A stretch of DNA of 39,460 nucleotides from a virus. The stretch is taken from IMG/VR virus record IMGVR_UViG_3300045988_131409; one strand, 5' to 3'. The notes beneath the pieces are model-generated. The model saw nothing but the letters and a program-made list of their open reading frames with translations, was not told where the DNA came from and did not search any database. This document shows positions 18,092 to 39,460 of the stretch, piece by piece (the first letter of the stretch is position 1; the number at the start of each line of letters is the position of its first letter). The position numbers were made by a program, and so were the translations under genes.

Positions 18092-18173
18092 GGCGGGTTG
18101 CCGGAGAGGCCGATCGGGGCCGACTGTAAATCGGCTGCATCACGCCACGCAGGTTCGAATCCTGCACCCGCCA
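18092..18173 (+). tRNA. tRNA-Tyr (anticodon GTA), class II long variable arm
   Basis: Manual fold. Acceptor GGCGGGT/ACCCGCC is 7 bp. D stem is CCGG/TCGG with one GU pair. Anticodon stem GCCGA/TCGGC carries loop CTGTAAA. The variable arm is 13 nt. T arm is GCAGG-TTCGAAT-CCTGC. Discriminator is A and CCA is not encoded. Confidence 0.9.
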
Positions 18174-18242
18174 CTCCACACCACCCGCACGGGTGGTTTT
18201 TACGCCCGGAACGGGCCCCATCAACCACAAAGGAGAACCATC

Positions 18243-23249: not shown

Positions 23250-26243
23250 ATGGCAGAAAGCAGCATCGGCGTCGTCTACATCGAAGTCGCCCCAAGCGGC
23301 AAAGACTTCGGCAAGAAACTCGAAGGCGACATCACCCAAGCCGCCGACAACGCCGCCAAGACCGGCGGCACCAGCATCCTCGGCAAATTCGGCGGCGCAT
23401 TCGGCAAAATCGGCAAAATCGGACTCGGCGCCATCGGCACCATCGCCGGAGGCATCACCGCACTCGCCGCCAAAGGCGGCTTCCAACGCGCCCTCGCCAT
23501 CGAAAACGCGCAGGCCAAACTCAAGGGCCTCGGCCACGACTCCAAAAGCATCGCCGAAATCATGAACAACGCGCTCGCCAGCGTCAAAGGCACCGCGTTC
23601 GGCCTGGGCGACGCGGCCACCGTGGCCGCGACCCTGAGCGCCGCCGGCATCAAATCCGGCGACCAGATGACCAACGTCCTCAAAACCGTCGCCGACACCG
23701 CACAGATATCAGGCCGCAGCCTCACCGACATCGGCACCATCTTCAGCAGCGTCGCCGCCCGAGGCAAACTGCAGGGCGACGACATGCTCCAACTCATGAG
23801 CTCCGGCGTACCCGTCCTCCAACTGCTCGCCAAACACCTCGGCAAAACCTCGGAAGAGGTCTCCGACATGGTATCCAAAGGCCAGATCGACTTCCAAACA
23901 TTCGCCGACTCCATGCAGGAAGGCCTCGGCGGAGCCGCATTGGCCGCCGGCGACACCTTCCAAGGCGCGCTCGCCAACGTGAAGGCCGCGCTCGGCCGAC
24001 TGGGCGAAGGCCCCGGCAAGCTCGCGCTCGAATCGTTGCGCAAGGCGTTCAACGCCGCCATCCCCGCCATCGACGCGTTGAGCGGCCAGCTCACCCCGTT
24101 CCTCGACAAGCTCAACGGCCAGCTCGACCCCTACATCGACAAAGCGATAGGCCTGATCGAACGGTTCGCGAACGGACTGCAGGACGGCAGCATCACCATC
24201 CAGGACATCGTCGGACAGGTCGGCCAACTCGCCGGCGCGTTCGCCCTGTTCGCCGGCGTCGGCGGCAACGTGGACAAGATCACCAACGTGTTCGACACGC
24301 TCGGCAAAATCGGTGACGGCGGGTTCGGCCAGCTCACCGGGAAACTCAAGCAGATGCCCGGCCAGCTCCAGTCGAGCCTGACGGGCCTGCACCAGTTCAA
24401 ATCGTATTTCAACAAGGACCTGCGCGACGCCCTCGCCGTCGACGGCGACCCGTTCGCCAACGCCCTCAACCGCATCACCCAAGGCACTGACAGGCTCACA
24501 GGCCCGTTCAAATCGTTCGGCTCGAAAATCGCCGGCACCGACATCGGCCAATCCGTCACCGCATGGGGGTCAAAACTCACCAGCGGATTCGGCAAACTCA
24601 CCAGCGCGGCCGACAGCAACCTGCTCGCGTTCGGCACGAAACTCTCCAACGGATTCGGCGGAGTGATCTCCAAAATCGGCGACTCGAAACTCGCCACCGG
24701 ATTCACGGCGCTCGCCGGCAAAGTCAAGACGGCGGCCACGCCAGCCCTATCCGGTCTGGGCGACATATTCGGCGGTCTGGGCGACATCGTGGGACCGAAG
24801 GTGCAGGCAGGCCTCGGCAAGATCGGCGGCATGTTCGGCAGCTTCTTCAGCCCGGGCAACTTCCTGAAGTTCCTCGGCATCGGCGCCATCATCGCCGCCC
24901 TGGTCGCGGGACTGGGCATGCTCGACCAGAGCATGGGCGGGCAATTGTTCGTGCAGATCAGCAACCTGTTCGCGGAACTGCCCACCATGATCACGGACGG
25001 CATGGCGAAGATTTCCGCCGTGCTGCCGGGCATGATCCAGACTGGGTCGAACATCCTGCTTGCCCTGATCAACGGCGTGACCGGGAGCCTGCCGCAGCTC
25101 GTCTCGGCCGCCGCGCAGATCGTGAGCATGCTCGTACAGGGGCTCGCCCAGGCGTTGCCGACCCTCCTGCCGGCAGCGGTGCAGATGATTACCACGCTGA
25201 TCACGGCGCTCATCGAACAGGCCCCCATGCTCATACAGTCCGGCATGCAGCTCCTGCAGGGGCTCGTGCAGGGCATCATGAACTCGCTGCCCACGCTCAT
25301 CGCCGCGATACCGCAGATTCTGCAGGCGCTGCTGGATGCGTTCACGACCGCTCTGCCCACGGTCCTCAACATCGGCGTGGACATCATCCTCAACATCGTC
25401 AACGGCCTGGTCTCAGCCATGCCGCAGCTCGTCGCGATGCTCCCCACCGTCATCCAGACGCTGATATCCACGCTCACCAGCAACCTGCCGGGCATCGTCC
25501 AGGTCGGCGTCAACGCGCTGGTCAAGCTCATCGACGGCCTGTCTCAGGCCATCCCGCAGCTCGTGGGCTACATCCCGCAGATCATCGCGTCGATCGTCAA
25601 CACGCTCGCCTCGAACCTTCCACAGATTCTGCAGGCCGGCGCGCAGATCATCATCACCCTCGCCGGGGGCCTTGCCAAGGCCATCCCGCAGCTCATCAGC
25701 CAGATCCCCGCCATCGTGCGCTCCATCTGGAACGGGTTCACAAGCGTGAACTGGGGCGAGGTCGGCCTGAACATCATCACCGGCATCGCCTCCGGCGTCG
25801 CCGGGGCCGCCGGCAAGCTCGTCGACGCGGCGGTCAACGCCGCCAAGGACGCTCTGAACTGGGTCAAGGACAAGCTCGGCATCCACTCGCCGAGCCGCGT
25901 GTTCCGCGACCAGGTCGGCGTGATGATCGGCCGCGGCATGGCCGTGGGCATCGACCGCAGCCAGGACGTCGTCAACCGGAGCCTCGGACAGCTCGCCGAT
26001 GGGCTCACGTTGGACGGCTACACGTTCGGCATGCCCACCCCCGTGATGAGCCTGCCGGCCAACGCCTGCCAGATGGTCAACGGCATGCAGTCGAACCAGC
26101 AGGGCATGCAATCCCAGTTGGACGAGCTGCTGGCCGAGGTGCAGGCGTTCCACGAGGATATGCCGTTCATTCTGCAACAGTTGGGCATCAACATCGACGG
26201 GCGGGAATTCGGAAGGGCGGTGCGACGCTATGCAACGGCTTGA
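23250..26243 (+). CDS. Tape measure protein
   Basis: 997 aa, Gly/Ala-rich, with a hydrophobic central region containing repeated (L/I)PQL(V/I) units. It follows the G/GT pair. Confidence 0.9.
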   Translation: MAESSIGVVYIEVAPSGKDFGKKLEGDITQAADNAAKTGGTSILGKFGGAFGKIGKIGLGAIGTIAGGITALAAKGGFQRALAIENAQAKLKGLGHDSKSIAEIMNNALASVKGTAFGLGDAATVAATLSAAGIKSGDQMTNVLKTVADTAQISGRSLTDIGTIFSSVAARGKLQGDDMLQLMSSGVPVLQLLAKHLGKTSEEVSDMVSKGQIDFQTFADSMQEGLGGAALAAGDTFQGALANVKAALGRLGEGPGKLALESLRKAFNAAIPAIDALSGQLTPFLDKLNGQLDPYIDKAIGLIERFANGLQDGSITIQDIVGQVGQLAGAFALFAGVGGNVDKITNVFDTLGKIGDGGFGQLTGKLKQMPGQLQSSLTGLHQFKSYFNKDLRDALAVDGDPFANALNRITQGTDRLTGPFKSFGSKIAGTDIGQSVTAWGSKLTSGFGKLTSAADSNLLAFGTKLSNGFGGVISKIGDSKLATGFTALAGKVKTAATPALSGLGDIFGGLGDIVGPKVQAGLGKIGGMFGSFFSPGNFLKFLGIGAIIAALVAGLGMLDQSMGGQLFVQISNLFAELPTMITDGMAKISAVLPGMIQTGSNILLALINGVTGSLPQLVSAAAQIVSMLVQGLAQALPTLLPAAVQMITTLITALIEQAPMLIQSGMQLLQGLVQGIMNSLPTLIAAIPQILQALLDAFTTALPTVLNIGVDIILNIVNGLVSAMPQLVAMLPTVIQTLISTLTSNLPGIVQVGVNALVKLIDGLSQAIPQLVGYIPQIIASIVNTLASNLPQILQAGAQIIITLAGGLAKAIPQLISQIPAIVRSIWNGFTSVNWGEVGLNIITGIASGVAGAAGKLVDAAVNAAKDALNWVKDKLGIHSPSRVFRDQVGVMIGRGMAVGIDRSQDVVNRSLGQLADGLTLDGYTFGMPTPVMSLPANACQMVNGMQSNQQGMQSQLDELLAEVQAFHEDMPFILQQLGINIDGREFGRAVRRYATA

Positions 26244-27075
26244 GTACGTGTGTTCCACCGGCGGCTCGATCTCGTTCGAAGGCCCTATCTACGGGGAGAC
26301 GATGCCATCGTTGAGAGGACGCGCGTGGACGTACACGCTCGGCGCGCGCACCCTTACCGGGGTGGCATGGCAGGCCCGTGAACTCACGCTCACCATCAAG
26401 GCCGTGGCCGGCGAAACCCAATTGGACCGGCTGCGCATGCTCACCGACCATGACGTGCTCGCGCACTCCAGGGACTCCACGATATCGGGCCTGCTGCGCG
26501 TGGACGACGTGTGGGAGTGCAGGGCGCTCATCACCAAAAGCGAACCGCAATCCATCACGCCACGCATCATCGAAACCCAATTGACCGTGACCCAATTGGG
26601 CATGTGGCGACGCAGCCTGCCGACCGTCACCTATGCGCCCAGCGACCCCGACGCCTACCAGTATCTCGATCACCCGTATGACATGGACTACGATTACGGG
26701 CCGACATCCGCCCCACCGGTGATAGCCGTGGACGGGTTGGACCCGATGCCGTTCCGCATGACCATATACGGGCCCTGCTCGAATCCGACCGTCACGATCG
26801 GCGGAAACCGGTACCGGATCACCGGTGACATCCCCGGCGGCGCACGCGTCGAGGTGGATGCGGTTGAAGGCGAGAAGTCGGTGACGCTCGTCAACGCGGC
26901 CGGTGACCGGATCAACTGGTTCGCGAACGCGGAACGCGGTGCCGGCCTTGATTCCGGCAGCTACGTCTTCCAACCGTTGCCCGCCGGGCGCGTCGAAGTG
27001 AGCTGGCCGGGAGGCTACACGTTCGAGCTCACGCCCGTCGAGGAGAGGAGCGAACCACCGTGGTCAGCCTCATAG
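26230..27075 (+). CDS. Distal tail protein (Dit-like)
   Basis: 281 aa, directly after the tape measure. Confidence 0.6.
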   Translation: MQRLEYVCSTGGSISFEGPIYGETMPSLRGRAWTYTLGARTLTGVAWQARELTLTIKAVAGETQLDRLRMLTDHDVLAHSRDSTISGLLRVDDVWECRALITKSEPQSITPRIIETQLTVTQLGMWRRSLPTVTYAPSDPDAYQYLDHPYDMDYDYGPTSAPPVIAVDGLDPMPFRMTIYGPCSNPTVTIGGNRYRITGDIPGGARVEVDAVEGEKSVTLVNAAGDRINWFANAERGAGLDSGSYVFQPLPAGRVEVSWPGGYTFELTPVEERSEPPWSAS

Positions 27076-28631
27076 TCACCGACGCGAAGCACAAGCCGTT
27101 GCGCGCGGTGGACGACTACACGCTCGATCTCGCCTACGGCAGCGATGAGAATTCGTTCAAACTCACCTGCCTGCCGCAGCCGGAGGCCGGCGCGCTGATC
27201 ATGATCGACGGCACCGAATACGGCGGGTTGGTGACCGTGCGCAACACGGACGGCAGCGTGGAGGGCCCCACCTGGCATGGCCTGCTCTCACGCCGCATCC
27301 TCCAACCCGATACGGGTCGGGATTACCTCACCGTATCCGGCGCTGCCGGCGATGTGCTCAACATGTTGTTCAAACGCATCGGATTGGATGCGCTGTTCAC
27401 CGCGTCCGCCCGGCACGCGGTCACCATCGGCTCCTATTCGTTCGACCGGTATACGGACGCGTACACGGGCATCCGGAAGATGCTCGCCGCCAACAATGCG
27501 AAACTCCGTCTCATCTGGGCGGACGGGCGTGTGAACGCGTATGCGCTGCCCGCCGAACACTCCGGCGGCAGCATCGACAGTGATCTGCTCGAATTCAAAG
27601 CCTCATTGGACTCGCAGCCGGTGAACCATCTCATCGGATTGGGCACCGGGGAACTCAAAGACCGTGCGGTCGTCCACTGGTACGCGGATGTCAACGGCAA
27701 CGTGAGCCAAACCCAATCATTGACCGGATTGGCGGAACGTCAGGCCGTCTACGACTATTCCAACGCGAAACCCGACGAGCTGAACACCGAGACCAGGAAG
27801 AAGCTCATCGAACTGCAATCCCAGGGCGGCGTCGAGGTCACCATAACGGACAACACGTTGAGCATGGACATTGGCGACACGGTCACCGGCCGTGACAACC
27901 GGCTCGGCATCACGCTCACCGTGCCCGTGGCCAAGAAGATCGTGAAATCATCCGGCGGCATCCTGTCCGTGGACTACGAGTGCGGCACCGCGTCAGGCGA
28001 TACGACGAGTCTCAGCGGCTCCGCGGAATCCAACGGCTCCACCGGTTCGGGCGGCTCCGGCGCGTACTACGCGGACGGGGTCACCATCACCATGCGCAAC
28101 AACACGTTCAGCGCGGTCGTCACCCCTTCGCGCGTGGACGACGTGGAGAAAACAGCCAAGGACGCCTACACGCTCGCCTCGAACTATTCGGCCGAAATCG
28201 GCAAGGCACAGCAGGATTCCATCGCCGCCATCGCCGCGGCAGCCATGAACGTGGCCTCGATAACCACGGCCACGCCATTGTCCGCGAGCAGGAACGGCCA
28301 GGCCGTGCACATCACGGCAACGGAGGCCACGGCCGAAGGATCCGGGCTCATGAGCGCCGCGGACAAGCGGAAACTCGACGGATTGGACACCTACGCGCTT
28401 CCGGCCGCCACCATTGCCACGTTGGGTGGAGTCAGACCTGACGGCAGCACCATCACCGTCAATGAGGATGGCGTCATCACCGCGCACGCCACATCGACCG
28501 GCAACGGAATCCTGTTCCCGGTCGGCTACGTGGTCATGAACACCACCGGCTCGGATCCGGCGAATGATTTCGGCGGCGTCTGGGAGGAACGGCCCTCCCT
28601 GGGCGCGCACATGTGGGAAAGGACGGGATGA
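27060..28631 (+). CDS. Tail-associated/baseplate hub protein (Tal-like)
   Basis: 523 aa after Dit. The C-terminus ends FPVGYVVMNTTGSDPANDFGGVWEERPSLGAHMWERTG. Confidence 0.6.
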   Translation: MVSLIVTDAKHKPLRAVDDYTLDLAYGSDENSFKLTCLPQPEAGALIMIDGTEYGGLVTVRNTDGSVEGPTWHGLLSRRILQPDTGRDYLTVSGAAGDVLNMLFKRIGLDALFTASARHAVTIGSYSFDRYTDAYTGIRKMLAANNAKLRLIWADGRVNAYALPAEHSGGSIDSDLLEFKASLDSQPVNHLIGLGTGELKDRAVVHWYADVNGNVSQTQSLTGLAERQAVYDYSNAKPDELNTETRKKLIELQSQGGVEVTITDNTLSMDIGDTVTGRDNRLGITLTVPVAKKIVKSSGGILSVDYECGTASGDTTSLSGSAESNGSTGSGGSGAYYADGVTITMRNNTFSAVVTPSRVDDVEKTAKDAYTLASNYSAEIGKAQQDSIAAIAAAAMNVASITTATPLSASRNGQAVHITATEATAEGSGLMSAADKRKLDGLDTYALPAATIATLGGVRPDGSTITVNEDGVITAHATSTGNGILFPVGYVVMNTTGSDPANDFGGVWEERPSLGAHMWERTG

Positions 28632-29179: not shown

Positions 29180-29930
29180 CACCAGCAAGGTCATCGACCT
29201 GGACCGGCTCGCCCGGTTCAAAGCAAAGCAGGACGCGGCCAACGACGCCAAGTTCGCACTCAAGGGCGAAGGCGGCTCGATCGCCACGGCCGACAAGGCG
29301 GGCATCGTCAAGCCCGGCGGCGATTTCGACATCACCGAGGACGGCACCATCAGCCTGTACAAGGCGATGGGCATTAACTCGTTCACCGTTTCCCCATCGC
29401 AGGCGGAACACGGTTCGACGGTCGCGGACGTGACCGTCGCATGGAGCCTGTCCAAGACGCCGAAATCGCTCACCCTGGACGACAAGGCGCAGGACACGGC
29501 ATCCAAGGGCACGACACTCTCCGGCGTGAACCTCAAAGCGAGCAAGACGTACACGCTCAAGGCCACCGACGCGCGAAACGCCGTCGCCACCCGCACCGCC
29601 GACGTCGCTTTCCGCGACAAGCGCCACTGGTGGGTCGCCGCCAGCCTCGACGCGGCGGGAGTGACCGACCAGATCATCAACCAGGCGACCGGCGAACTCG
29701 CCACATGGTACAACAAAACGTTCACCCTGAACGCGGCGGCCGGGCAGCACATCTACTACGCGTTCCCCGCGTCGTGGGGCACGCCCCGATTCTTCGTCGG
29801 CGGCTTCGAAGGCGGCTTCGCGTTGTTGAAGACGTTCGACCACAAGAACGCGAGCGGCGCGACCATCAGCTACGCGGTCTGGAAATCCACGAACGCGGGT
29901 CTCGGCAACACCACCGTCGAAGTGAAGTAA
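29172..29930 (+). CDS. Tail fibre protein
   Basis: 252 aa. N-terminus IDLDRLARFKAKQDA is fibre-like. Located within the fibre cluster. Confidence 0.6.
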   Translation: MANTSKVIDLDRLARFKAKQDAANDAKFALKGEGGSIATADKAGIVKPGGDFDITEDGTISLYKAMGINSFTVSPSQAEHGSTVADVTVAWSLSKTPKSLTLDDKAQDTASKGTTLSGVNLKASKTYTLKATDARNAVATRTADVAFRDKRHWWVAASLDAAGVTDQIINQATGELATWYNKTFTLNAAAGQHIYYAFPASWGTPRFFVGGFEGGFALLKTFDHKNASGATISYAVWKSTNAGLGNTTVEVK

Positions 29931-29942
29931 AGGAGAACCCTG

Positions 29943-30134
29943 ATGGCAATCGAACTGATCGACACGCTCGCGCCGAAGAACAACGGCACGTTCCCCATGG
30001 TCAAAGCCAAGGATGTGGACGTCGACGGCAAACGACTCCCCGAGAAACTCAAGGAGCTCGAAACGGCTGCCGGAAACATCGAGACCGCCACCGACGACGA
30101 CATCAACAACCTGTTCAACCCCAGCAGCAAGTAA
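29943..30134 (+). CDS. Small fibre-associated protein (63 aa)
   Basis: AAGGAG RBS. C-terminal ATDDDINNLF. Confidence 0.5.
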   Translation: MAIELIDTLAPKNNGTFPMVKAKDVDVDGKRLPEKLKELETAAGNIETATDDDINNLFNPSSK

Positions 30135-30149
30135 CGAAAGGAAACCATC

Positions 30150-30947
30150 ATGGCCACGAAATTCATCAACCTGAACAACCTCGCCACATTCCTCGCCAAA
30201 CTCAAGACCCTGTTCGTCGCCAAGGAACTCAAGACCGGCAGCCCCAACACCTACAAGGTGCTCTCCGACAACAACCTCACCGACGAACTCGTCGCCAAGA
30301 TCAAGAACGCCGGCGCCTCCACGTTCTCCGGCGCGTACACGGACCTGACCGGCAAGCCTTCCATCGGCGGCAAGGAGATCGCCAGCGGTAACCAGACCGC
30401 GGCCAGCCTCGGCCTCGCCACCCCCGCGGACGTGACCACCGCCGCCAACAACGCGCGCGCCGGCGCCGTCAACGACATCAAGAATCTCGGCTATCAGACC
30501 GCAGCCAACGTCGAGACCGCCATCAGCGCGAAAGGCTACCAGAACGCCGCCCAGGTCAACACCATCGTCACCGGCAAGGGCTACCAGACCGCCGCGAACG
30601 TGGACGCCAAGGTCAACGCCGCGAAGACCGAACTGCAGAACTCGCTCGGCTCCGCATTCCGCGCCCAAGGATCCACGGCATTCGCCAGCCTGCCCGCCCC
30701 CGCATCCGCCGCCAAGGGCGATGTGTGGAACATCACAGACCAGTTCACCACCGACGGCCGGTTCGTCGACGGTTCAGGCAAGACCCTGCCCGCCGGCACC
30801 AACGTCGTCGCCGTGGCCGTCACCACCGGCGACACCACCGTCATGAAATGGGACGCGCTCACAGGCATGATCGATTTGAGCGGCTACATGCGCAAAACCG
30901 ACATCACCCCGGCCAGCGACGCCGAAATCGACGCCCTGTTCGCCTAA
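30150..30947 (+). CDS. Tail fibre protein with GYQ(T/N)AA(N/Q)V repeats
   Basis: N-terminus INLNNLATFLAKLK, three GYQ-AA-V repeats and C-terminal SDAEIDALFA. Confidence 0.6.
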   Translation: MATKFINLNNLATFLAKLKTLFVAKELKTGSPNTYKVLSDNNLTDELVAKIKNAGASTFSGAYTDLTGKPSIGGKEIASGNQTAASLGLATPADVTTAANNARAGAVNDIKNLGYQTAANVETAISAKGYQNAAQVNTIVTGKGYQTAANVDAKVNAAKTELQNSLGSAFRAQGSTAFASLPAPASAAKGDVWNITDQFTTDGRFVDGSGKTLPAGTNVVAVAVTTGDTTVMKWDALTGMIDLSGYMRKTDITPASDAEIDALFA

Positions 30948-30959
30948 GGGACCCCGGCC

Positions 30960-31172
30960 ATGGCGGAAACATACGTCACCCTCCACGGCCTCGCACGGGC
31001 GGTCACGAACCTGCTGCAACGCACCAACACGCGCACTATGTTCACGGCCGCCCACCCCATCGGCGAGATCATCGAAACCACCCCCAACCTCGACCCCAAC
31101 ACAATCGGCGGCACATGGACACGCCTCCCCGACACCATCGGACGAGGCCGCCTCTGGAAACGCACCGCATAA
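30960..31172 (+). CDS. Small fibre-module protein (70 aa)
   Basis: HPIGEIIETTPNLDPNTIGGTWTRLP...RLWKRTA mirrors the C-terminus of 27060..28631. Confidence 0.45.
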   Translation: MAETYVTLHGLARAVTNLLQRTNTRTMFTAAHPIGEIIETTPNLDPNTIGGTWTRLPDTIGRGRLWKRTA

Positions 31173-31187
31173 ACGTCAGGAGAACAC

Positions 31188-31991
31188 ATGACAGTCGAAC
31201 TCATCACCGGCTTCGCCGGCACCCCACACATCGGCAGCGACGACATCGGCGCATTCCAGGCCGGCATCGTCGGACCTGGCGACTACGCGCTCGCCACCGG
31301 TAATCAGCTCAGGGCCACCATGAGCAACGCGAACACCATCGCCGTCCAATCCGGTGATGCCGTATTGAACGGCCGCCATGTGCACCTGACCGGCACCACC
31401 ACCGCCACCGTGCAATCCGGCACCCAAGGCCAGAAACGCAACGATCTCGTGGTGCTTCGCTACACGAAGAACACCACCACCGGCGTGGAAACCTGCTCAA
31501 TCGTGGTCCTCAAGGGCACCCCCACCACCGGTACCCCGGCGGATCCGGCCCACAACACCGGCAGCATCCTCGACGGCGTCGCCACCCACGACATGCCCCT
31601 CTACCGCATCCCGATCAACGGCATCACCGTCGGTACCCTCGTGCCATTGTTCAACGTTCTGAAGCCGATGACCGACGTGTGGGATTCCCTATCCCCGAGC
31701 ACTTATATTGCATGCGGACGAACGAACGAGGGGGTCAGTGCCCTTGGGGCAGTCTCCTTCAAATTCCCGACCGGCCGCCCCTCTTGGGCGGCGGGTCGCA
31801 AGCCTGATTCCTTCGTGTTCAGCGATGATGAGCAGGCGAACAACAACGAGATTGTCCAGAAGCGATATATGTCGCGTCTTTGGAGCCTAGACGCGAATGG
31901 AGGCCAGTTCAGAATCCTTCGATCCGACACATGGTCATGGATTAACGCTGGGAACTACCCTGTTAGCTGGATCGCTACATGGAACAAATAG
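31188..31991 (+). CDS. Distal tail fibre / receptor-binding protein, currently expressed shufflon variant (v0)
   Basis: AGGAG RBS, 267 aa, last structural gene. It contains the + oriented recombination site at codons 166-170. Confidence 0.75.
   Translation: MTVELITGFAGTPHIGSDDIGAFQAGIVGPGDYALATGNQLRATMSNANTIAVQSGDAVLNGRHVHLTGTTTATVQSGTQGQKRNDLVVLRYTKNTTTGVETCSIVVLKGTPTTGTPADPAHNTGSILDGVATHDMPLYRIPINGITVGTLVPLFNVLKPMTDVWDSLSPSTYIACGRTNEGVSALGAVSFKFPTGRPSWAAGRKPDSFVFSDDEQANNNEIVQKRYMSRLWSLDANGGQFRILRSDTWSWINAGNYPVSWIATWNK
31683..31696 (+). repeat. Shufflon site 0 (GATTCCCTATCCCC) inside the expressed gene
   Basis: The core TTCCCTA-NCC is shared with the minus-strand sites. The frame is GAT TCC CTA = D166 S L. 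Confidence 0.75.
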
Positions 31992-32014
31992 CCTTCCCTG
32001 GATAGGGAAAGCTA
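31989..32014. repeat. Tail-to-tail site-like palindrome TAGCCTTCCCT-GGAT-AGGGAAAGCTA
   Basis: Stop plus site-like sequence of v0 faces stop plus site of cassette v1. Arms are 11 bp with 1 mismatch. Confidence 0.7.
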
Positions 32015-32296
32015 GTTCCATATCGCAACCCATGAGAATCTTGCAGGCCATCTTGTGCCGAACTCTCCAGTACTGGTGTTCATCAATCGCATTTGTGCTG
32101 CGTTCACACCATTCTCCCAAATGGTTATGGCCAAGCCTCGCATGTCGTCCGAGGGCCACGGCCCGGGGGTGGCGACAATTACGTCAGGCGCCTTGCCGTT
32201 GGGAGATTGGTAGGAGATGACGCAAATGCCGTTCTCGTTGGAACTCCCAATGAACACGCCTGATTGGACGGACGTGGGCAGTGGGGTTAGGGAAAA
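32012..32296 (-). other. Silent C-terminal cassette v1 (94 aa, no own start/RBS at its 5' boundary)
   Basis: Minus frame runs from site B: F-S-L-TPLPTSVQSGVFIGSSNENG ... SWVAIWN-stop. The ending parallels the v0 ending SWIATWNK. Confidence 0.7.
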
Positions 32297-32299
32297 CTA
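32283..32299 (-). repeat. Shufflon site B (minus strand TAGTTTTCCCTAACCCC)
   Basis: The TAG is the stop of cassette v2. TCC CTA is in frame with cassette v1. Confidence 0.75.
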
Positions 32300-32623
32300 C
32301 GCGGGCACCGGGTCGGCGGTGCGCCAGACGCCGGCGCATCCCGCGTACGCGCTGTTCGGGTTACCGAGCATCGTGACGGTGCCATTGGCCTCGCCGTAAC
32401 AGATGAATGTCGTGTTACCACCGAAAACGGCCACGGGCGTATTGACGGAAACAGGTCGATACCCTTCGGGAATCTTCTCCTGAGCCTTCGTGTAATTGTT
32501 TTCCCCTGACTGGTCGAATTTCACGTTGCCGCCCATAAAACAAATATTGCCGATGCGCGTAAGCAAAACGCTGTCTCTGCTATACGGCACACGCCACCCC
32601 GTCGAACGCTGGGCTAGGGAAAG
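32297..32623 (-). other. Silent C-terminal cassette v2 (108 aa)
   Basis: Minus frame runs from site C: L-S-L-AQRSTGWRVPYSRDSVLLTRIG ... EKIPEGYRPVS ... GVWRTADPVPA-stop. Confidence 0.7.
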
Positions 32624-32626
32624 CTA
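32611..32626 (-). repeat. Shufflon site C (minus strand TAGCTTTCCCTAGCCC)
   Basis: The TAG is the stop of cassette v3. TCC CTA is in frame with cassette v2. Confidence 0.75.
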
Positions 32627-32938
32627 GGCGGTCAGCCAGCTGCCAGTACAGGTTTGGTAATATCCTTTATCCGCTTTGCCGCGGACGATGATGCTTCCAT
32701 CAGAGCTTATATACCAGCTACCGACAGCGCCGCCATTGTTCGATACAAACAGAATCGACCCGTAGGAAGCTGGCCTGTATCTTTCCGGGATTTTCTCTAT
32801 AGCTTTCAATTCTCCGGTCGCATAACTAGATGATGGCGAAGGTTGGCCGACCGCTATAACGATGCGACCTATGCGCATGAGTAGTACATTCATCGCGTAG
32901 GGGCCAGTAAACGATACAGACGATTGGGTTAGGGAATC
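32624..32938 (-). other. Silent C-terminal cassette v3 (104 aa)
   Basis: Minus frame runs from site D: D-S-L-TQSSVSFTGPYAMNVLLMRIG ... EKIPERYRPAS ... GSWLTA-stop. It is a paralogue of v2. Confidence 0.7.
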
Positions 32939-32941
32939 CTA
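32926..32941 (-). repeat. Shufflon site D (minus strand TAGGATTCCCTAACCC)
   Basis: The TAG is the stop codon of the recombinase gene. TCC CTA is in frame with cassette v3. Confidence 0.75.
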
Positions 32942-33808
32942 TTGCCCGATCAGCGCGCGTTCCCAGATGCTTTGGGCCTCCTTGAGAGACGCGATTTCCG
33001 GTCGCAGATAGAATCTGGCGGTCGTCTTGATGTCGGTGTGACCGAGGAACTTGCTGACCACCGCGATGTTGACTCCCGCTTCCAGGGCGTTGGTGGCCCA
33101 ACTGTGGCGGAGATTCTGCACCGGCACGTAGGGCAGCGACTCCTTTTTGCACCATGAGGCGTAGCGTCGCGCGGCTTGCGATGGAGTCAGGTCACCGATG
33201 ATACGGCCCTTCCGGCCGTTGCGGATCTCCCGCAATCGCCGGACGGCGAATCGGGGAAGGGGCAGAAACCGGTCGGACAGTTCAGTCTTCGGCGGCACCA
33301 CCACTTCGTGGCCGGCCACCCATTGCACTCCACGCTGGATATGAGTGATGCCGGAACGCATATCGATATCCGCCCAATCGACTCCGTACCCCTCTTCCGG
33401 CCGCAACGCCAGACACGAGTCCACAATCAGCCAAGCCTCAAGCGCATGGCCATAAAAGCCCTGTAGTTGGCGACGAGTCTGCCCGATGGTCAGCAGACGC
33501 GGCACATAGAGCGGCTTGGCCGGCAGATCAATCTCCAAACGGGTCACATCGACCTCTAAGTAGCCCCACTTCGCGGCCTTGCGTAGCATCTGCCTCAACA
33601 CCGCCCAAGCCTTGCGGGCCGCACCTGGACCCGCGAACCCTGACAGCCACAGCTCGATGTCATCCACGCCGATGTCAGCCAACTCCATGCTGCCGAACAC
33701 CGGCTCCACATGGCACCGCCAAGCCGACTCATAGCCAACGCGCGTGACCTCGCGCAGGCGCTCGCAATAGCCGACATACCGGTCATCCCAAAACTCTTGC
33801 AACAACAT
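32939..33808 (-). CDS. Small tyrosine recombinase (shufflon invertase candidate)
   Basis: ALRPEEG (Arg I), NLRHSWATNALEAG, FLGHTDIKTTARFY (His and catalytic Tyr), ~289 aa with no arm-binding N-domain. GGAGG sits 5 nt before ATG 33808. Alternative starts are 33877 and 33892. Confidence 0.8.
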   Translation of the reverse strand: MLLQEFWDDRYVGYCERLREVTRVGYESAWRCHVEPVFGSMELADIGVDDIELWLSGFAGPGAARKAWAVLRQMLRKAAKWGYLEVDVTRLEIDLPAKPLYVPRLLTIGQTRRQLQGFYGHALEAWLIVDSCLALRPEEGYGVDWADIDMRSGITHIQRGVQWVAGHEVVVPPKTELSDRFLPLPRFAVRRLREIRNGRKGRIIGDLTPSQAARRYASWCKKESLPYVPVQNLRHSWATNALEAGVNIAVVSKFLGHTDIKTTARFYLRPEIASLKEAQSIWERALIGQ

Positions 33809-33890
33809 TTCGACCTCCGAAAACCCACACGCCTCGCGGCCAATCCGCTCGGTATCGCGTGTGGGTTTTCTCACCATAAAGGAGCCCCGC

Positions 33891-34202
33891 ATGTCGCAGT
33901 TAATCGAACAACTCGTTGAATGGATGGTGCCCTTCTTATGCGGTGGCGCGGTCACCGTGCTGGGCCTCATGCGGCGATGGGGCAGAGCAATCATCAACGG
34001 GATGCGCGAGCTCCTGCTGTGCCAGTTGGAGGACCTGCGACGCGAAATGGTCGTCGAGCACGACGGAGTGGCGGACGAGGACCTCAAATCACGCTCCCAG
34101 CGACTCTATGACAGCTATCACAGCCTGGGCGGCAACGGCCACGGCACGTCCCTCAACGACGACATCCAATCTGCGCCAATCGCGCCGCGCAACAGAACTT
34201 GA
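33891..34202 (+). CDS. Single-TM membrane protein (holin or lysis-accessory candidate)
   Basis: AAGGAG RBS, TM segment WMVPFLCGGAVTVLGLM. It is the first gene of the lysis block. Confidence 0.45.
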   Translation: MSQLIEQLVEWMVPFLCGGAVTVLGLMRRWGRAIINGMRELLLCQLEDLRREMVVEHDGVADEDLKSRSQRLYDSYHSLGGNGHGTSLNDDIQSAPIAPRNRT

Positions 34203-35956: not shown

Positions 35957-35982
35957 ATAGAGTGGACTATAGAGTGGACTCC
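35957..35982 (+). repeat. attP arm-type repeat pair (ATAGAGTGGACT x2)
   Basis: Exact tandem 12-mers just upstream of the integrase RBS, in the same orientation as the 35736 pair. Confidence 0.65.
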
Positions 35983-36000
35983 CAACAGGGAGGGAACCCA

Positions 36001-37239
36001 ATGGCCGCAACGAAAAGACGCCGCACCAAGGGCGCGGGAGGAGTGTTCAGGGACAAGGCCGGCAAATGGCATTTCCGCACCGAGATCACGGCCGACCCCG
36101 GCACCGGGCGCCGCCGCATCATCGAGACCACGGGACTGGTCAAATCCGACGCCCGCCAACGCCACGAGAACAAGCTCAGGGAATACGAGCGCACGGGCAT
36201 CATCCATTCCAATCAGTCGCCCTACCTGCGCGACTACATCATCCGATGGTGCGGGCAGCGCCGCCGCGACCTGAAACCCAACACCTGGTACAACCTCGAC
36301 AAGCGGTGCAACATCATCGCCAATATTATCGGGGGAGTGCGGCTCGCCGAGCTCACGCCCGCGCACGTGCGCCTCATGATGGACAGGCTCGGCCGAACCC
36401 GCGCGCCGCGAACCGTGCGCGAATACCACGGGATACTCAAACAGGCGCTCGACGACGCCGAACTCGAGGAGCTCATCGACCGCAACCCCTGTCGCAGGGT
36501 CAGGCCGCCACGCTACGAGGAGACCCCGCAGAGGATACTCGACGAATCACAGCCCAAGGAACTGATCGCCGCCGCCGTCAAGGCACCCATGGCCGGAGGC
36601 AGGCGAGGCCCGCACGACTCCCCGGAGGACACCGAGATGTGGGCCATCCTGTTCGAACTCGCGTTCGCCACCGGCATGAGGGAAGGCGAACGATACGCGC
36701 TCATGCCCTACGAGCTAGAAATACGCGACGGCATACCCGGCATCTTCGTCCAACAGCAGCTCCAGGACTACGTCGGCGGCGCCGACGCGGTGATACCCAA
36801 ATGGCACAACGCCGTCCACGTGGTCGGCGGACTCTGGCTCGTACCACCAAAATCCAAGAAAGGCGTACGCTTCGTGCCCATCACATGGAACCTGTGGAAC
36901 CGGCTGTGGAACCGCATCATCATGTTCGGCATGCACCCCCACCAGTTCATCTTCAACAACCTCCTCGGCCGACCCATACGACAGGAACAGGAAAACCGAC
37001 GCTGGAGAAACGCCCTCCAAGCAGCCGGCCTCCCATACGTCAAAATCCACTCCGCCCGCCACTGGACAGCCACCAGAGTCGCCGAATCAGGAGCCAGCGA
37101 AGACGAACGCATGGCCGTACTCGGCCACACCGACATCCAAATGACCGCCCGATACACCCACTGGGGCACCAAGGCGCTCGCTGACATGATGCGCGAAGCC
37201 ATACCCAGCCTCACGGATGACAGTGATGACGTGTCATAA
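36001..37239 (+). CDS. int: Phage integrase (tyrosine recombinase with an arm-binding N-domain)
   Basis: GGGAGGG RBS. N-terminal GGVFRDKAGKWHFR (AP2-like arm-binding), then HSARHWTATRV and VLGHTDIQMTARYTHW. Confidence 0.9.
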   Translation: MAATKRRRTKGAGGVFRDKAGKWHFRTEITADPGTGRRRIIETTGLVKSDARQRHENKLREYERTGIIHSNQSPYLRDYIIRWCGQRRRDLKPNTWYNLDKRCNIIANIIGGVRLAELTPAHVRLMMDRLGRTRAPRTVREYHGILKQALDDAELEELIDRNPCRRVRPPRYEETPQRILDESQPKELIAAAVKAPMAGGRRGPHDSPEDTEMWAILFELAFATGMREGERYALMPYELEIRDGIPGIFVQQQLQDYVGGADAVIPKWHNAVHVVGGLWLVPPKSKKGVRFVPITWNLWNRLWNRIIMFGMHPHQFIFNNLLGRPIRQEQENRRWRNALQAAGLPYVKIHSARHWTATRVAESGASEDERMAVLGHTDIQMTARYTHWGTKALADMMREAIPSLTDDSDDVS

Positions 37240-39271: not shown

Positions 39272-39460
39272 CTACGCGGCGAGTTCCACGGGAGCCCGCT
39301 CTTCCAATTTGGAGTAGGGGATGACGGTCACACCGTAGTTGCGGAACGCGGTGAGCGCGCCGCGCTGCAACGGCGTCTGCCGGTCGTCGCCGATGACTAT
39401 CAGCCGGGAATCCCTGCGCTTGGGATCCTTCTTCGTGTCATCCCAACCGAACATGATGTC
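39272..39460 (-). CDS. DUF1828/DUF1829-like protein, 3' part (same gene as 1..704)
   Basis: The frame is continuous with 1..704 once the 119-bp overlap is collapsed. Stop at 39272..39274. Confidence 0.7.
   Translation of the reverse strand, partial: DIMFGWDDTKKDPKRRDSRLIVIGDDRQTPLQRGALTAFRNYGVTVIPYSKLEERAPVELAA
39342..39460. repeat. Terminal overlap copy 2 (identical to 1..119)
   Basis: Direct comparison of both ends. Confidence 0.95.

Follow-up and report, generated by a model that had tools for sequence, protein, structure and literature searches.

A probable Rin-type shufflon exchanging four receptor-binding heads in the genome of a Bifidobacterium-type phage

What is the role of three open reading segments that abut one another on the opposite strand, between a phage tail gene and the gene for a small tyrosine recombinase? 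An earlier note on this DNA took them for interchangeable C-termini of the tail gene, that is, for a shufflon. We find that the locus is very probably a Rin-type multiple-inversion shufflon that exchanges four heads of a receptor-binding protein (RBP); the non-random placing of the sites, the fusions, the permuted loci, the type of recombinase and the fold of the head were each tested, and each upheld the shufflon reading. The DNA analysed, called the window throughout, is the whole 39,460-nucleotide stretch of IMG/VR record IMGVR_UViG_3300045988_131409. Its first 119 nt are identical to its last 119 nt and it has no host flanks; it is a complete phage genome of ~39.3 kb, probably of the Bifidobacterium dnaJ2-prophage group. 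Megablast of positions 31000–34000 against 50,697 GenBank phage records gave no match, and so the window does not correspond to any phage genome deposited there.

Five copies of the motif TTCCCTANCC are present in the 39.5 kb window, at 31685–31694 on the + strand and at 32000–32009, 32285–32294, 32612–32621 and 32927–32936 on the − strand. Every copy lies within 31685–32936 and there is none anywhere else in the window; the chance expectation is 0.04, and none of 100 shuffled sequences held five copies. The longer form TAG-NN-TTCCCTR is also found five times (0.02 expected), at the four − sites and at a degenerate + site described below, the in-gene site being outside this count. The positions given in the earlier note, 31683..31696 for the + site and its recurrences on the − strand, were all correct, as was its observation that each − site has the form TAG-NN-TTCCCTA. 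These sites, which we call rix, share a 7-bp core, TTCCCTA, exact in 5/5, with a short left arm (T-R-G-N-W) and a short right arm (N-C-C-C). The rix within the RBP gene (31680..31695, +) reads TGGGA-TTCCCTA-TCCC, its core forming the Ser167-Leu168 codons. On the − strand, the rix of cassette Rv_b (32284..32299) reads TAGTT-TTCCCTA-ACCC, that of Rv_c (32611..32626) TAGCT-TTCCCTA-GCCC and that of Rv_d (32926..32941) TAGGA-TTCCCTA-ACCC, in which TAG is the stop codon of Rv_c, Rv_d and rin respectively. Two of the five sites are exactly TTCCCTAACCC and, as in a Rin shufflon, a repeat of this type occurs within the RBP gene and ahead of every variable cassette, and is rare elsewhere.

The RBP gene (31188–31991, +) comprises a constant N-terminal part, Rc (residues 1–166; 31188..31684), and the C-terminal cassette now expressed, Rv_a (31686..31991; 101 aa from Ser-Leu, plus stop), with GAT TCC CTA at 31683–31691 encoding Asp166-Ser167-Leu168. 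The silent cassettes lie on the − strand: Rv_b (32012..32293; 93 aa), Rv_c (32297..32620; 107 aa) and Rv_d (32624..32935; 103 aa), each counted from Ser-Leu, plus stop. Their frames (32293 to 32012, 32620 to 32297 and 32935 to 32624) are open from TCC CTA to the stop codon, which bears out the proposal that translation would pass through the site in frame. The in-frame exchange of C-termini proposed with it stands; the size range of 94–108 aa does not, having counted the stop codon, and the real range is 93–107 aa including Ser-Leu. In a genome of 62% G+C open frames alone are weak evidence, and the decisive support for the cassettes as swappable parts is instead that each occurs elsewhere as an expressed fusion. 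We ruled out that the silent cassettes are independent small genes, as their 5′ boundaries have neither a start codon nor a ribosome-binding site and all homologues are fusions. A diversity-generating retroelement was also ruled out, there being no reverse transcriptase or template repeat close to the locus.

Among the best 120 homologues of the RBP, 120/120 break at WD|SL. The Rc N-terminus (166–168 aa) is 94–100% identical across proteins with many different C-termini, and the C-termini of these 120 include the window's four cassettes and >10 other families. Every silent cassette is found in public assemblies as the expressed C-terminus, joined to the same N-terminus exactly at WD|SL: Rv_c in protein P0030 (cassette 100% identical; 96 member sequences) and loci L003–L006; Rv_d in P0019 (cassette 100% identical) and loci L007–L009; Rv_b in P0016, P0017 and P0023 (95–99% identical) and loci L010–L012 and L016. 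Rv_a, expressed in the window, is silent on the opposite strand in L006, L007, L009, L010, L016 and L048. Rin shufflons likewise have a constant part of 168 residues to which C-termini of ~95–100 residues can be joined in frame. The homologues bear the names B. longum and B. breve, and the assembly containing L010 is of B. longum subsp. longum. Our survey covers 24 cassette families at ~40 loci.

If cassettes are exchanged by inversion, closely related loci should carry them in other arrangements. Comparison of related loci, a check suggested in the earlier note, revealed just this, with cassettes in permuted orders and orientations and breakpoints in rix. The order in the window is Rc a+ J b− c− d− rin, where J is a tail-to-tail junction. 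Loci whose Rc, cassettes and rin are 97–100% like those of the window carry the same cassettes in other orders or orientations, and in the seven of these permuted loci for which flanks were compared these are 98–100% identical to the window. In L008, with Rc, c, d and rin DNA 100% identical to the window and flanks 99.4–99.95% identical, the order is Rc d+ c+ a+ J b− rin. L007 and L009 have d+ m+ b+ J′ a− c−; L013 has a+ J b− c−; L016 has b+ J′ a− c−; L043 and L045 have a+ J b− d− c−. Inverting [a J b] turns the order of L004 into that of L006, and inverting [j a] turns that of L010 into that of L011. By a search over the inversions allowed between sites, the permuted loci are 2–4 steps away from the window (L008 2, L043 4). 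As a comparison of assembled sequences, these loci, which come from different samples, prove inversion during recent divergence, a result from which no rate can be derived; rix–rix inversion, as expected of a Rin shufflon, is in this sense observed between genomes.

The junctions also locate the crossover. In every one, the 5-nt left flank goes with the upstream unit (tggga with Rc, tagcc with a, tagct with b and d, tagtt with c, tagga with rin), while base 8 goes with the cassette (T with a, A with b and d, G with c). Because the left flank tracks the upstream unit and base 8 tracks the cassette, strand exchange is placed within TTCCCTA, and all breakpoints fall inside this 7-bp core. Could homologous recombination, or exchange of modules between co-infecting related phages, have produced the same patterns without Rin? 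Cassettes do move between lineages: Rv_a is 97–99% identical in P0010–P0014, whose N-termini are only ~50–55% identical, and cassette d is present in loci of two Rin classes; cassette number also varies, from 2 to 7 per locus. Nevertheless, orientation changes are seen among loci that are 99–100% identical, with both breakpoints within the 11-bp site, which is far too short for homologous recombination. Left flank and base 8 segregate as expected for exchange at a 7-bp core, and published reads show several orientations in one culture (PMC6109161). We consider exchange between phages a very improbable explanation, and site-specific inversion by far the better one.

The candidate catalyst is encoded directly beside the array. 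The gene, rin (32939..33808, −), specifies a 289-aa tyrosine recombinase in which Pfam recognizes Phage_integrase (PF00589; 2.9e-12) and a SAM-like domain, Phage_int_SAM_3. A ribosome-binding site, GGAGG (33814..33818, −), lies 5 nt upstream of its ATG; this position, together with 289-aa gene calls in most related loci, favours the 289-aa start over a 382-aa ORF starting at TTG. Rin aligns to XerA (4a8e) and XerD (1a0p), and its active-site residues R136, K174, R234, H257 and Y267 are all present. It has core-binding and catalytic domains only, as the earlier note had supposed in describing a recombinase with no arm-binding domain, and lacks ~95 residues that the phage integrase has at its N-terminus. 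That enzyme, of 425 aa, is encoded separately at 35962–37239, so that the window has the combination found in Rin shufflons. That Rin is itself a second integrase, or an Xer-like dimer resolvase, with another (host) enzyme inverting the cassettes, is extremely unlikely. Its closest solved relatives are indeed XerA, XerD and IntI4, and its homologues are annotated ‘integrase’ in GenBank. However, rin always adjoins the array, its stop codon is the left arm of the terminal rix, three sequence classes of Rin pair with three core sequences, and a full-length integrase is present separately. We infer that Rin is the inversion catalyst.

A further question is whether the system is active in this genome, or whether sites and cassettes are an inherited relic in which Rin no longer inverts and the phage always makes Rc–Rv_a. 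Rin has Q231 at the HxxR position, which is mostly His in tyrosine recombinases. Frozen copies are known elsewhere, in L005, where rin is interrupted by a stop codon, and in Bl30698phi1 (PMC6109161); the closest relatives of the window, L041 and L042, have their cassettes in the same order, and the arrangement in this genome is known from the assembled sequence. Against a relic, the rin gene is intact, is preceded by a good ribosome-binding site and shows 100% identity to the rin of the differently arranged loci L007, L008, L010 and L011; exact cores are retained at all sites; and a Q/R substitution at the HxxR position (Arg in the other two classes) is common to all Rin classes, which still show rearrangements. 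A frozen locus is therefore improbable, and inversion is probably still going on in this genome. A search with Rin against genome contigs yielded just a fragment of 1.1 kb along with an unrelated integrase, probably because that set has only one genome per species.

The core sequence varies with the recombinase. TTCCCTA accompanies a Rin ~100% identical to that of the window, TTCGCTA a Rin of 58% identity (16/17 loci) and TTCCGTA a Rin of 49–54% identity (phage PMBT6 and ctl617). The link is not absolute, since L014 combines a class-2 Rin with TTCCCTA sites, and, as the many loci are related by descent, the co-variation counts as about three independent classes. We ruled out L038 (Rc 54% identical) as a fourth core class; it consists of two cassettes in a simple inverted pair, its site is different and no recombinase gene lies beside it. 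Sites were looked for in L040 (43% identical) and none was seen. The one-base differences between cores may act as mutually incompatible spacers that separate co-resident shufflons, much as heterospecific lox or FRT sites do.

One − site does not conform to the pattern. The copy listed in the earlier note at 32000..32014 exists, but it opens no cassette, only a 17-codon stub, SLSREGYLFHVAIQLTG*. It forms part of the junction J (31989..32014, TAGCC-TTCCCTGGATAGGGAA-AGCTA), together with a sixth, degenerate + site, TTCCCTGGATA, absent from that note's list, whose extended form at 31989–32000 directly follows the expressed gene's stop codon. The degenerate + site (31994–32004) overlaps the consensus − site (31999–32009), the two forming the near-palindrome TTCCC-TGGATA-GGGAA, and in J both sites come after the stop codon of their own cassette. 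In L010–L012 and L048 this position is occupied by an extra cassette of 449 nt flanked by two full rix sites, and J therefore looks like a collapsed rix pair. Recombination at the − site 32000–32009 could yield a headless protein of 185 aa, Rc plus the 17-residue stub; an analogous all-silent state is assembled in L048. On a tentative reading that we hold somewhat doubtful as a whole, the tail rix would provide a built-in headless or all-silent state, the at least three core classes would possibly be mutually incompatible, and recombination between directly oriented sites would delete cassettes, so that control of orientation would be leaky.

What does the exchanged part encode? The RBP sequence matched PDB chains at chance level only (E 0.23, to pseudouridine synthases), Pfam gave no matches for the RBP and its neighbours, and PHROGs at the locus were families of unknown function with weak ‘tail’ and ‘head’ labels. 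Structure prediction was more informative. Foldseek with the AlphaFold model of Rc–Rv_a found the p2 RBP (1zru/2bsd; E 5e-4) and the 1358 RBP (4l92); the Foldseek values overall were E 4e-6 to 5e-4 for the p2 RBP and 4e-3 for the 1358 RBP. The modelled Rv_d domain (pLDDT ~90) superposes on the TP901-1 head (4ios_A) with TM 0.79 and rmsd 2.6 Å, and on the p2 head (2bse_A) with TM 0.71. The models are partly confident: in model 1 the N-terminal part is good and the head poor (pLDDT ~50–60), and in model 2 the head is good and the N-terminal part, for which the alignment has almost no variation, is poor for that reason. The models have the layout of lactococcal-type RBPs (p2, TP901-1 and 1358), a shoulder/neck N-terminal part and a C-terminal beta-sandwich head, and place the junction just ahead of a domain that resembles the heads of p2 and TP901-1. 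Gene 31188–31991 encodes a baseplate receptor-binding protein, and the part exchanged is its head domain.

The following mechanism would account for these features. Three promoterless, start-less cassettes lie head-to-tail on the opposite strand, each behind its own in-frame rix, and the TAG in which each ends doubles as the left arm of the next rix. Rin would pair the in-gene + site with any − site and exchange strands inside the 7-bp core; the intervening DNA would invert, fusing residues 1–168 in frame to a new head of ~91–105 residues. One inversion would suffice to express any silent head, and inversions at other pairs of sites would change the order of the array. The heads presumably differ in receptor specificity, in which case the switch would change host range.

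Several known systems share this logic. In the shufflon of the IncI1 plasmid R64, the tyrosine recombinase Rci acts at sfx sites on C-terminal segments of pilV; its sites too are asymmetric, each having a 7-bp core and a single well-conserved arm, and multiple inversions among them swap an adhesin's C-terminus in frame. The target in R64 is a plasmid pilus tip adhesin, whereas in the window it is a phage tail protein, and Rci is longer than the 289-aa Rin, with a C-terminal extension. In tblastn of Rin against 72,556 plasmids the best matches were generic integrases (24–29% identity), with no IncI rci among the top hits; judged from these, Rin is not an Rci orthologue. Gin (Mu), Cin (P1) and Min (p15B) belong to the serine invertases, which use a Fis-dependent enhancer and cross over at 2 bp. 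They too are phage-encoded and exchange the receptor-binding C-terminus of a tail fibre by inversion, Min with multiple cassettes, but the window has a tyrosine recombinase and a 7-bp core in place of a serine invertase: the sole recombinase at the locus matches PF00589. Clade 1 prophages of Eggerthella lenta also have a Rin shufflon (PMC8778435), with a tyrosine recombinase gene by tandem Rv genes and an Rc gene, and with short asymmetric repeats both within the gene and behind it. Its repeat, TTCCGTAT, has the core class of PMBT6 and ctl617 and not that of the window, its Rv proteins have H-type lectin domains and its Rc is much larger (PMC8778435).

The system is in fact already known. A Rin shufflon was described in the dnaJ2-integrated prophages Bb423phi1, Bl157phi1 and Bl30698phi1 of B. 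breve and B. longum, with read-level evidence of inversion (Mavrich et al. 2018, Sci Rep 8:12772, PMC6109161); the earlier note was right in naming such a report. The window matches it by rix (11 bp, TTCCCTAACCC), 168-residue constant part and rin gene, and shares variable C-termini of ~95–100 residues, a tyrosine recombinase without arm-binding domain beside the array, a separate Lambda-type integrase, an N-terminus like that of the phage 1358 RBP and C-termini like the TP901-1 RBP head. There is no difference in kind; cassettes number four in the window and up to five in the published loci, and the window differs from those prophages in its collapsed tail-to-tail pair and in being a circular or complete genome, not an integrated prophage. 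According to PMC6109161, these phages have no known permissive host. With the system in the literature since 2018, the window adds an instance, not a discovery. What may go beyond the published description is the headless or all-silent state at the tail site, the three core classes one base apart and the deletion of cassettes between directly oriented sites.

Such a system allows a temperate gut phage to change receptor-binding heads with no need of mutation, a property relevant to host range and to the dynamics between phages and Bifidobacterium in the infant and adult gut. The survey shows that the system is common in metagenomes, with a large shared pool of heads and distinct classes of recombinase and core; it could guide work on site specificity in tyrosine invertases without arm-binding domains, and the engineering of phage host range.

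Five copies of the motif TTCCCTANCC are present in the window (39,460 nt): one on the + strand (31685–31694), inside the receptor-binding protein gene at 31188–31991, and four on the − strand (32000–32009, 32285–32294, 32612–32621 and 32927–32936). Dinucleotide-preserving shuffles gave a mean of 0.04 copies, and none of 100 gave five. The extended form TAG-NN-TTCCCTR matches all four − sites, and also a degenerate sixth site on the + strand at 31989–32000. In the gene, this recombination site (rix) is read as GAT TCC CTA, or Asp166-Ser167-Leu168; from the same TCC CTA, the − strand frames of three silent cassettes, ending at 32012, 32297 and 32624, are open for 93, 107 and 103 codons, respectively, and no start codon was found at the 5′ boundary of these segments. 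The TAG stop of each cassette doubles as the first triplet of the left flank of the next rix, and the last rix takes this triplet from the stop codon (32939–32941) of the adjoining recombinase gene, rin. An earlier note had proposed a shufflon with one + and four − sites and start-less segments read through the site as x-Ser-Leu. Direct reading and the motif count bear out these sites and segments; the sixth site was absent from its list, and the exchangeable C-termini, which it put at 94–108 aa, are 93–107 residues long including Ser-Leu. The array (31650–33000) has a G+C content of 49–57%, as compared with 62–65% around it, and GC and AT skews of about zero, while skew is strong in the flanks and in rin, which is encoded on the opposite strand. 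Such a composition would fit DNA that alternates between the two strands, or a foreign origin.

The rin gene (32939–33808, − strand) has a GGAGG, 5 nt before the ATG, and encodes a protein of 289 residues, which matches the Pfam family Phage_integrase (2.9e-12) and a SAM-like core-binding domain; its best alignments among solved structures are to XerA (4a8e), IntI4 and XerD. Compared with the integrase of the phage itself (35962–37239), Rin is ∼95 residues shorter at the N-terminus, which, with the Pfam domains, confirms the proposed recombinase without an arm-binding domain. R136, K174, R234, H257 and Y267 are present, and Gln231 (33114–33116) occupies the usual position of the HxxR histidine. 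That position is Gln or Arg in all three classes of Rin that we distinguish, while His is kept in the phage's own integrase.

A previous report (Mavrich et al., 2018; PMC6109161) describes a Rin shufflon in dnaJ2-integrated prophages of B. breve and B. longum, and matches the Bifidobacterium system named in the earlier note. The rix of that system is 11 bp long (TTCCCTAACCC); its constant N-terminus (Rc, 168 residues) is related to the receptor-binding protein of phage 1358, and its variable C-termini (Rv, 95–100 residues) to that of TP901-1. An adjoining gene, rin, encodes a tyrosine recombinase that lacks an arm-binding domain, and several orientations were found in sequencing reads from one culture and from induced virions. 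Every defining feature that is testable in the window was found there, and the locus is therefore very probably a Rin-type shufflon. The system itself is already described; the window adds an instance. Positions 1–119 are identical to 39342–39460 and there are no host flanks; the identical 119-nt ends point to a circular-assembly overlap, so that the window probably represents a whole phage genome (∼39.3 kb). A tRNA-Tyr (anticodon GTA) lies within the phage genome at 18092–18174 (+).

The junctions locate the putative crossover. In all of them the 5-nt left flank of the core tracks the upstream unit (tggga after Rc, tagcc after the expressed cassette a, tagct after silent cassettes b or d, tagtt after silent cassette c, tagga after rin), while base 8 tracks the cassette (T for a, A for b and d, G for c). 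Judged from these sequences, strand exchange must take place inside the 7-bp TTCCCTA; 7 bp is an overlap-region size of tyrosine recombinases. Over 62 distinct sites the pattern is T-R-G-N-W | TTCSCTA | N-C-C-C-M, in which only G (−3) and C (+9) are marked as invariant; we infer that the arms form a weak dyad (GGGW-N7-WCCC) whose left half is degenerate. This asymmetry is reminiscent of the sfx sites of R64, which are also asymmetric.

Related loci (L001–L048, from public assemblies) extend the system. Of 17 loci with class 2 Rin proteins (58% identical to that of the window), 16 have the core TTCGCTA, although these loci are mutually related and the class–core pairing amounts to about three independent observations. 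TTCGCTA is found at every site of the class 2 loci among L017–L039 (IMG/VR contigs; e.g. L017:4498–5705); the sole exception is L014, with TTCCCTA. Class 3 (49–54% identical; core TTCCGTA) occurs in Bifidobacterium phage PMBT6 (L046; MK932884.1, ∼29700–32100) and Siphoviridae sp. ctl617 (L047; OY725605.1), where rin is annotated 'integrase' and lies beside arrays of four and seven sites, respectively, with core TTCCGTAACCC. The same core has been reported for a related, later-described system in Eggerthella lenta prophages (repeat TTCCGTAT; PMC8778435); a literature search found no paper describing a shufflon in PMBT6. The core is common to all sites within one locus, as expected if strand exchange needs matching cores. 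In a distant relative, L038:4494–5117 (IMGVR_UViG_3300019373_000307), whose N-terminus is 54% identical, two tail-to-tail C-terminal cassettes are flanked by one inverted pair, GGGATTACATGTCCC and GGGGTCACATGTCCC, with no adjoining recombinase; this could be a plain two-state switch that is acted on in trans.

DNA around homologous genes was retrieved and annotated by script for units, strands and sites, and the permuted orders anticipated in the earlier note were found. Writing J for the tail-to-tail junction of a and b, J′ for its inverse, and m, j and stub for further units, the window, L041 (flanks 100% identical to those of the window) and L042 read Rc a+ J b− c− d− rin; L008, Rc d+ c+ a+ J b− rin; L007 and L009, Rc d+ m+ b+ J′ a− c− rin; L013, Rc a+ J b− c− rin; L016, Rc b+ J′ a− c− rin; L003–L005, Rc c+ a+ J b− rin; L006, Rc c+ b+ J′ a− rin; L010, Rc b+ stub j− a− rin; L011 and L012, Rc b+ a+ j+ stub rin; and L043 and L045, Rc a+ J b− d− c− rin. 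The DNA of L008 is 100% identical to that of the window in Rc, c, d and rin, and 99.4–99.95% in the flanks. In a breadth-first search over oppositely oriented site pairs, two inversions convert the window to L008 and four to L043, and expression of any silent cassette is one inversion away. Loci carry 2–7 cassettes, with 24 families in ∼40 loci, and number differs among close relatives (L003–L006, L013 and L016 versus the window, L007, L008 and L039). Loci with three cassettes, for example L003 and L013, would be the expected residue of recombination between directly oriented sites; alternatively, they may have been inherited from an ancestor without the missing cassette. Contigs L001, L027 and L044 stop exactly within a rix, and L020 and L024 within 45 nt past one, consistent with assembly-graph branching from mixed orientations in a sample.

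Junction J (31989–32014), which lies between the a and b stop codons, reads TAGCC-TTCCCTGGATAGGGAA-AGCTA and contains the near-palindrome TTCCC-TGGATA-GGGAA. In L010–L012 and L048 the same two flanks surround two full rix sites with the 449-nt cassette j between them; J therefore resembles a collapsed pair, and looks like two head-to-head sites left after loss of j. Its − copy, TTCCCTATCC, is identical to the in-gene rix, and inversion between the two would flip cassette a alone, joining Rc to a 17-codon stub. The order in L048:3001–4575 (logan SRR29109615_48), Rc-stub33 j− b− a− rin, has all cassettes on the opposite strand, and its predicted 199-residue product (P0044), Rc plus a 33-codon stub, is analogous to this fusion and is a putative headless state of the receptor-binding protein. 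The available part of PMC6109161 contains no mention of such a state.

The receptor-binding protein gene lies downstream of the tape-measure (23250–26243) and minor tail protein (27060–28631) genes and upstream of an amidase and a holin. Its 267-residue product has no Pfam family; an AlphaFold model, confident at residues ∼40–160, matches the receptor-binding proteins of lactococcal phage p2 (1zru, 2bsd; E ∼5e-4) and phage 1358 (4l92; E 4e-3). A second model, of P0019, a homologue in which the N-terminus of the window is fused to cassette d, has a helix at 148–166 followed by a head domain (170–269; pLDDT ∼90) that superposes on the heads of TP901-1 (4ios_A; TM 0.79, rmsd 2.6 Å) and p2 (2bse_A; TM 0.71). 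This layout and these superpositions place rix, in the model, precisely where neck and head meet.

Among 5.8 billion proteins searched there were 2,599 relatives, and the 120 best all break at WD|SL near residue 166. Each silent cassette, as the earlier note had predicted, was recovered as an in-frame fusion to a near-identical N-terminus. Among these 120, N-termini 94–100% identical to that of the window carry a (nine proteins), b (P0016, P0017, P0023 and others; b 95–99% identical), c (P0030; 100%), d (P0019; 100%) and more than 10 further C-terminal families. P0010–P0014 carry cassette a at 97–99% identity, yet their N-termini are just ∼50–55% identical to that of the window, which argues that heads have been swapped between distinct phage lineages. 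We infer that the array inverts in this genome, and that the consequent switching of heads affects host range.
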